A stretch of DNA of 686 bases from Escherichia coli (GTDB taxonomy: Bacteria; Pseudomonadota; Gammaproteobacteria; Enterobacterales; Enterobacteriaceae), in the NCBI RefSeq assembly GCF_003334815.1, contig NZ_QOWO01000122.1. One strand, 5' to 3'. Positions 1-686 of the stretch are shown here, piece after piece. Under the pieces are notes generated by a model. That model saw only the letters and a list, made by a program, of their open reading frames with translations. It did not search any database and was not told the origin of the DNA. The position numbers were made by a program, and so were the translations under genes. Each line of letters opens with the position of its first letter. Within the stretch, counting starts at the first letter, position 1.

Positions 1-686
1 CTCTCCCGCACCTACAGCAGTTACCGGACAAAAACGCCCGCGCCGGTGGGGAGCCTCGGCCCCGGCTGGAAAATGCCTGCGGATATCCGCTTACAGCTGC
101 GCGATAACACACTGATACTCAGTGATAACGGCGGCAGAAGCCTGTATTTTGAGCACCTGTTTCCCGGTGAGGACGGTTACAGCCGCAGCGAGTCACTGTG
201 GCTGGTGCGCGGCGGCGTGGCGAAACTGGATGAAGGTCACCGGCTGGCCGCACTCTGGCAGGCGCTGCCGGAAGAACTCCGCTTAAGTCCGCATCGTTAT
301 CTGGCGACAAACAGTCCGCAGGGGCCGTGGTGGCTGCTCGGCTGGTGTGAGCGGGTGCCGGAAGCGGATGAGGTGCTGCCTGCGCCGCTGCCGCCGTACC
401 GGGTACTGACCGGGCTGGTGGACCGCTTCGGGCGCACACAGACGTTCCACCGCGAAGCCGCCGGTGAATTCAGCGGCGAAATCACCGGCGTGACGGATGG
501 TGCCGGGCGTCACTTCCGGCTGGTACTGACCACGCAGGCGCAGCGGGCAGAAGAAGCCCGGCAGCAGGCCATTTCCGGCGGGACGGAACCGTCCGCTTTT
601 CCTGATACCCTGCCGGGTTACACCGAATATGGCCGGGACAACGGCATCCGTCTGTCTGCCGTGTGGCTGACGCACGACCCGGAATA
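1..686 (+). CDS. rhsD: Rhs family core protein (YD-repeat polymorphic toxin), internal fragment of the conserved N-terminal region; partial at both ends
   Basis: Seen in sequence: frame +1 is open over the whole window (228 codons, no stop; last complete codon 682-684). About three quarters of the first 40 codons end in G/C, typical of a real GC-rich gene. Recognised from memory, not a database search: blocks such as LSRTYSSYRTKTPAPVG, SRSESLWLVRGG, SPQGPWWLLGW, VLPAPLPPYRVLTG, GEITGVTDGAGRHFRLVLTTQAQRAEEAR and IRLSAVWLTHDPEY match the N-terminal conserved region of E. coli-type Rhs core proteins, about residues 74-301 of a roughly 1400-aa protein by my estimate. The true start would then be about 220 bp upstream and the stop more than 3 kb downstream. 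The symbol is tentative: residues look closer to what I recall of the RhsD/RhsE subfamily than to RhsA/B/C, but I cannot verify this without an alignment. Family-level confidence is high; paralog-level confidence is about 0.5. Confidence 0.9.
414..421 (+). other. Chi octamer (5'-GCTGGTGG-3'), the RecBCD recombination hotspot motif of E. coli and relatives
   Basis: Seen in sequence: exact GCTGGTGG at 414-421 on the + strand, embedded in codons G-L-V-D (ggG CTG GTG Gac). Established knowledge: this octamer is the Chi site recognised by E. coli RecBCD. Its relevance depends on the host being E. coli-like and on orientation relative to replication, which cannot be determined from this window. The confidence value is for functional relevance, not for the sequence match. 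Confidence 0.4.

Follow-up and report, generated by a model that had tools for sequence, protein, structure and literature searches.

A Chi octamer in the rhsC core of Escherichia coli, very probably a codon-derived, ordinary Chi site with no special tie to Rhs

The DNA analysed here is a single stretch of 686 nt (hereafter the window), which corresponds without a mismatch to gene nt 220–905 of rhsC (b0700) in E. coli K-12 MG1655 (NC_000913.3), or positions 24802–25487 of the 50-kb rhsC locus (L001), in which rhsC nt 220 lies at 24802. Frame 1 of the + strand is open end to end (1..686) and encodes aa 74–301 of RhsC, an internal part of the core ORF. In a profile search the window matches positions 74–309 of the NCBIfam RHS_core profile NF041261 (E 3e-137), and full-length rhsC scores 2683.5 bits on this equivalog, for which the cut-off is 2000. 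YD repeats and the Rhs-associated core domain are both recognised in RhsC (matches to TIGR01643 and TIGR03696), and PISNIDPLGL at aa 1238 is the end of the core, fitting a family that ends in PxxxxDPxGL. Among 5426 complete E. coli genomes, 3886 carry the window, with a median of 3 copies per genome, and its 100%-identical chromosomal matches are annotated as rhsC, rhsB or “RHS element core protein.” A C/T difference at window position 341 (rhsC gene nt 560-561), where rhsC reads GGCTGGTGT and rhsA/B read GGTTGGTGT, identifies the window as the K-12 rhsC allele. An earlier interpretation of this DNA from its letters alone (the sequence-only reading) had placed it, with a GC content of 65%, inside an Rhs core in an enterobacterial host; the measured G+C is 64.7%, the core assignment is borne out by the profile match and the exact identity with rhsC, and the host is E. 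coli, a species whose Chi is GCTGGTGG and which carries rhsC/rhsB-type cores 100% identical to the window. On the - strand of the window, 119-439 and 283-675 form antisense ORFs of 106 and 130 aa with GTG starts, as is usual for GC-rich coding sequence, and nothing suggests that they are genes.

The exact Chi octamer GCTGGTGG occurs once in the window, at 414..421 on the + strand (0 mismatches), and will be called Chi-1; it is divided among codons as G|CTG|GTG|G and lies in Gly-Leu-Val-Asp, aa 211–214 of RhsC. Three one-mismatch octamers accompany it on the + strand: GCTGGTGC at 201..208, which encodes part of Trp-Leu-Val-Arg in the same CTG|GTG frame as Chi-1, GCTGGTGT at 341..348, which is specific to rhsC and falls on Gly-Trp-Cys in another frame, and GCCGGTGG at 42..49, on Ala-Pro-Val-Gly. 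A search of the minus strand of the window for Chi with up to one mismatch returned none, and all four octamers are on the + strand. The sequence-only reading had correctly located Chi-1 and the octamers at 201-208 and 341-348, and the one at 42-49 was missing from it.

How far these counts depart from expectation depends on the null. Dinucleotide shuffles, which take no account of coding sequence, give a mean of 0.07 exact Chi in the window, with at least one in 14 of 200, and 1.22 octamers with up to one mismatch against the 4 observed, a number reached by 6 of 200 shuffles. When synonymous codons are instead shuffled within the gene, so that the protein and the codon usage of the gene are both kept, the mean for exact Chi rises to 0.15 and 15% of shuffles contain at least one, in agreement with the sequence-only reading, which had itself considered a single Chi here statistically unremarkable and “a note rather than a discovery.” The same codon-aware shuffles yield 2.96 octamers with up to one mismatch on the + strand of the window, 32% of them reaching 4, and far fewer on the - strand. 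The apparent excess of octamers and their strand asymmetry are both to be expected from the encoded protein and its codon usage.

The codons that make up Chi-1 are GGG-CTG-GTG-GAC, and both exact Chi of the core (gene nt 633 and 2433) have the form nnG-CTG-GTG-Gnn on Leu-Val. Likewise, of the 12 + strand octamers with up to one mismatch that rhsC contains along its full length, 8 sit on Leu-Val in the nnG-CTG-GTG-Nnn frame. In this GC-rich gene CTG makes up 62% of the Leu codons and GTG 63% of the Val codons, and within the Leu-Val dipeptides CTG is used in 9 of 10 and GTG in 6 of 10; whether such a dipeptide gives a full Chi is decided by the initial G of the next codon, which is that of Asp at nt 633 and of Glu at nt 2433. 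The genome as a whole offers a close parallel, since among the 1008 Chi of E. coli (217 per Mbp) 99% lie inside ORFs, where 79% follow the coding strand and 68% use the CTG|GTG frame, and codon usage is reported to explain how frequent Chi is (Subramaniam and Smith, preprint, bioRxiv 10.1101/2021.07.08.451572). Chi-1 would then have arisen as a by-product of translation, the Leu-Val of the RhsC shell protein being written in the preferred codons CTG and GTG, with GGG before and GAC after completing the octamer.

Other elements that might share the site were also considered. The window was checked for structured RNA (Rfam, E up to 1) and for promoter-like sites, and neither was found, so that a structured RNA or regulatory element overlapping Chi-1 was rejected. 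An internal repeat that includes Chi-1 (D1, 402-425 and 522-545, 75% identity) consists of two short copies only and was treated as chance. Elsewhere in the coding sequence, window 459-490 holds an inverted repeat, CGCCGGTGAATTC / GAAATCACCGGCG, with 13-nt arms and a 6-nt gap, whose predicted RNA fold has a free energy of -20.7 kcal/mol (z = -2.7). A terminator-like hairpin with a T-rich tail (GGACGGAACCGTCC GCTTTTCC) lies on the coding strand in mid-ORF at 577-603, the terminator-like matches being two overlapping ones of weak consensus vs 0.3 expected.

Beyond the window, rhsA, rhsB and rhsC each carry two Chi on the coding strand and none on the other, at gene nt 633 (Chi-1) and nt 2433 (Chi-2, 2433-2440), and a search of the rhsD core and of the core of rhsE, a pseudogene, found zero. 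The genes rhsA, rhsB and rhsC were counted as one lineage, given an identity of 95-100% across most of the core and of 88% in a single patch. For the two Chi in the 3741 nt of this rhsA/B/C-type core, the expectation is 0.81 at 217 per Mbp (Poisson p ~0.20) and 0.70 from codon-aware shuffles, 12% of which contain at least two; these shuffles also reproduce the strand asymmetry, with 0.70 Chi expected on the + strand vs 0.10 on the - strand. The density of this core, 2 in 3.74 kb, is 2.5x the genome average and as such counts against reading its Chi as ordinary, while the two independent core lineages pooled (rhsA/B/C type and rhsD) give ~2 Chi in 7.5 kb, essentially the genome average. Octamers with up to one mismatch number 11 in the core vs 6.2 expected, a total reached by 1.4% of codon-aware shuffles, which is a nominal value, uncorrected for ~12 comparisons, and which concerns sequences without known activity. 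The five 50-kb rhs loci together (250 kb) contain 60 Chi, or 240 per Mbp, in line with the published 217 per Mbp. Among these, a + strand Chi at 27711-27718 of the rhsB locus L003 (NC_000913.3 3,623,711) lies in yhhH, the small gene directly downstream of the rhsB toxin tip, and, given the leftward action of Chi, would have its effect over the core and C-terminal tip of rhsB; yhhJ in the same locus has two - strand Chi that start 9 bp apart (L003 30101 and 30110).

The octamer of Chi-1 is identical in rhsA, rhsB and rhsC, and at least 11,381 of 11,970 window copies across E. coli genomes (at least 95%) retain the 40-mer centred on it, as counted by megablast, whose word size means that every match has the octamer intact; the corresponding 40-mer for Chi-2 occurs 8,073 times in E. 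coli genomes. The near-fixation of Chi-1 reflects how little the paralogs vary in this stretch of the core, and not preservation of a signal. In rhsD, which is ~70-83% identical to the rhsA/B/C-type core, the first site reads GGG ATG GCG GAC (Met-Ala) and has no Chi, and the second site keeps Leu-Val, but as CTG-GTC, and again has no Chi; rhsE has CTG-CTG at the second site. Judged by this comparison of rhsD and rhsE, the octamer is not conserved as a signal within the Rhs family. The Chi-like octamer at 341-348 is copy-specific, as follows from the C/T difference at 341: it is confined to rhsC, and rhsA/B have GTTGGTGT there, with two mismatches.

With oriC annotated at 3,925,744-3,925,975 of NC_000913.3, the five rhs genes are all on the + strand, rhsD at 523 kb, rhsC at 729-730 kb, rhsE at 1528 kb, rhsB at 3619 kb and rhsA at 3762 kb. 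The GC skew of the + strand over the 50-kb loci is positive at rhsC, rhsD and rhsE and negative at rhsA and rhsB, signs that fit the right replichore for the former three and the left replichore for the latter two. The same core Chi are co-oriented with replication in rhsC and anti-oriented in rhsA and rhsB, and the rhsA and rhsB sites make up 4 of the 8 anti-oriented Chi in a left-replichore sample of 100 kb. For a Chi site, co-orientation with the leading strand is a tendency and not a requirement. The core Chi show no replication-orientation bias, only the usual coding-strand bias. As for transcription, rhsA (L002 22183-26316) and rhsB (L003 23192-27427) are transcribed head-on to replication, and rhsC, rhsD and rhsE co-directionally. 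For Chi to be recognised, RecBCD has to unwind the DNA from the right of 5′-GCTGGTGG-3′, and the effect of Chi is on the DNA to its left (Taylor et al., 2016, PMC5041463); from this polarity, the core Chi of rhsC would face a RecBCD returning toward oriC from a collapsed fork, and those of rhsA/rhsB would not.

Approached correctly, Chi-1 is expected to be active. A RecBCD entering at a double-strand end on the gene-distal 3′ side and moving toward the rhsC start would recognise Chi-1 and nick nearby, and RecA loading would follow on the 5′ side of Chi-1, in the same way as at the other ~1000 Chi. From the 3′ side of the gene the enzyme would meet Chi-2 first, so that Chi-1 would be used by a RecBCD that passed Chi-2 unrecognised or entered between the two; with purified RecBCD, cutting at any one Chi has a frequency of only about 10-40% (Taylor et al., 2016, PMC5041463). 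The sequence on the active side that paralogs share is short, only about 630 nt 5′ of Chi-1, and upstream of the start codon the identity of rhsC with rhsA/B is 93%/77% in the first 100 nt and ~50% beyond. The 3′ flank of Chi-1, ACCGCTTCGG at 422..431 (+), has GCTTC at nt 4-8, with no A and with T at nt 6-7. An A-rich nt 4-7 (AAAA/AAGG) is favoured at this position and GGGCTTT/GGGCTTC is disfavoured, the difference between favoured and disfavoured flanks being about 1.5- to 2-fold in vivo (Taylor et al., 2016, PMC5041463). With GCTT at nt 4-7, Chi-1 lacks the favourable A-rich sequence and is closer to the disfavoured flanks, and the GCTT(C) context probably makes it weaker than maximal; the flank modulates Chi activity and does not abolish it.

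Little should be expected of the one-mismatch octamers. The variant GTTGGTGG cut hotspot activity from 14.1 to a background of 2.1 (Taylor et al., 2016, PMC5041463), and chi*, 5′-GCTGGTGCTCG-3′, which is recognised by RecBC1004D and in which every base of CTCG is needed, has no hotspot activity in wild-type cells. We considered window 201-211 as a chi* and rejected it, as it reads GCTGGTGCGCG, with one mismatch in the required CTCG. A full-text literature search for GCTGGTGC returned only primers and unrelated sequences and no activity data. On these grounds the one-mismatch octamers, two of which the sequence-only reading had presented as Chi-like, should not be counted as Chi, and a hotspot role is not expected of them.

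Differences between rhsC and rhsA/B are unevenly spread along the core. A block at gene nt 220-953 (735 nt), which holds Chi-1, contains only 2 differences (nt 561 and 724), vs ~3% elsewhere in the core, which suggests recent gene conversion between paralogs. The block nearly coincides with the window, the preceding difference, at nt 219, falling on the base immediately 5′ of the window. Further along, the most divergent patch of the core (nt 2215-2407, ~88% identity) ends 26 nt 5′ of Chi-2, and rhsC does not differ from rhsA/B between nt 2407 and 2704, a stretch of 297 nt of which 264 identical nt lie 3′ of the Chi-2 octamer. The divergent patch and the identical stretch together occupy L001 26797-27286 (rhsC gene nt 2215-2704) and meet at a sharp boundary, seen in one independent comparison. 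Taken as a mosaic, these differences speak for past exchange between paralogs and not for Chi as its cause. A Chi-polarised homogenisation of the paralogs was considered and found unsupported, the polarity being opposite at Chi-1 and Chi-2 in what is one independent comparison. The low-difference block at Chi-1 and the divergence boundary near Chi-2 may hint that the two coding-strand Chi bias where conversion tracts between paralogous rhsA/B/C-type cores begin or end, an idea to which we give hardly any credence; if it were true, Chi would help to shape the concerted evolution of this toxin-shell family.

The sequence-only reading had stated that RecA-dependent recombination between Rhs cores produces duplications, and it was right on the history: the name comes from the amplification of glyS through recA-dependent unequal crossover between rhsA and rhsB (Jackson et al., 2009, PMC2935791). 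From this it went on to suggest that a Chi in the core would stimulate RecBCD-dependent exchange between paralogs; that the Chi are selectively maintained for such exchange (duplications, gene conversion, homogenisation) we hold to be very improbable. Two Chi in the same orientation within 3.74 kb might seem to call for such an explanation, but the density is not significant (p 0.12-0.20), and the observed 2 vs 0.70-0.81 expected in the rhsA/B/C type, with zero in rhsD/rhsE, make the core statistically indistinguishable from the genome average, essentially the outcome under which the sequence-only reading was prepared to give up a special tie to Rhs. Orientation relative to oriC, which it had also proposed as a check, is mixed, with rhsC co-oriented and rhsA/rhsB anti-oriented, and shows no bias; indeed the rhsA/rhsB Chi face the wrong way for a RecBCD coming from collapsed forks. 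Retention of Chi-1 in at least 95% of ~12,000 copies is what maintenance would predict, yet the rhsD and rhsE cores do without Chi, and rhsD has GTC at the conserved Leu-Val. That paralogs have exchanged sequence is indicated by the near-identity block at nt 220-953 and by the 297-nt identical stretch by Chi-2, and that rhsA-rhsB unequal crossover depends on recA is established, but since Chi acts leftward only the ~630 nt of shared core lie on the active side of Chi-1. Moreover, no rhs-mediated chromosomal rearrangement has been reported from sequenced genomes, so that no natural case is known, and the “hot spot” phenotype has been judged artefactual, a product of the selection applied (Jackson et al., 2009, PMC2935791). 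Among the papers searched for Rhs together with Chi and RecBCD none linked Chi to Rhs, and those returned mention Rhs only as multi-copy sequence that is masked in read mapping.

It has also been proposed that Chi is over-represented on the leading strand because it serves the repair of replication forks, and Chi-1 could on that account be kept by weak genome-wide selection, with nothing specific to Rhs. Both rhsC Chi do lie on the leading strand of the right replichore, in the orientation met by a RecBCD moving oriC-ward, and Chi is described in the literature as polarised on the leading strand; the very same Chi, however, lie on the lagging strand in rhsA and rhsB, where they contribute 4 of the 8 anti-oriented Chi in the 100-kb left-replichore sample. 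Codon usage and gene orientation are reported to explain both the frequency and the orientation of Chi (bioRxiv 10.1101/2021.07.08.451572), and the codon-aware shuffles performed here need no selection to give the observed counts, so selection for fork repair, too, strikes us as very unlikely. We therefore consider it very probable that Chi-1 is a by-product of codon usage and at the same time a genuine Chi, and that nothing points to placement, enrichment or maintenance specific to Rhs, a view grounded in its identity, frame, density, orientation and absence from the sister subfamily, all of them directly observed. So understood, Chi-1 is ordinary and already explained, one of ~1000 in a genome where a Chi is expected in ORFs about every 4-5 kb, and its ordinariness removes a tempting but unsupported link between the name “rearrangement hot spot” and a recombination signal. 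Had Chi shaped exchange between Rhs cores, this would bear on how toxin shells stay homogeneous while their tips diversify, but there is no present reason to think so.

Set beside known systems, the window is the Rhs element core of RhsC itself, the YD-repeat shell of a polymorphic toxin (NF041261), and as the same gene it shows no difference from it. The designation of Rhs as a “rearrangement hot spot” goes back to a laboratory selection rather than to any role demonstrated in nature (Jackson et al., 2009, PMC2935791). With chi* the window shares the first eight bases, GCTGGTGC at 201-208, and differs over the full 201-211, GCTGGTGCGCG. From the Chi of E. coli at large Chi-1 differs in nothing of kind, only in a 3′ flank (ACCGCTT) without A-rich nt 4-7 and in having rhsA/rhsB copies that are anti-oriented to replication; as an exact octamer within an ORF that reads CTG|GTG for Leu-Val along the coding strand, it belongs to the modal class of Chi in the genome.
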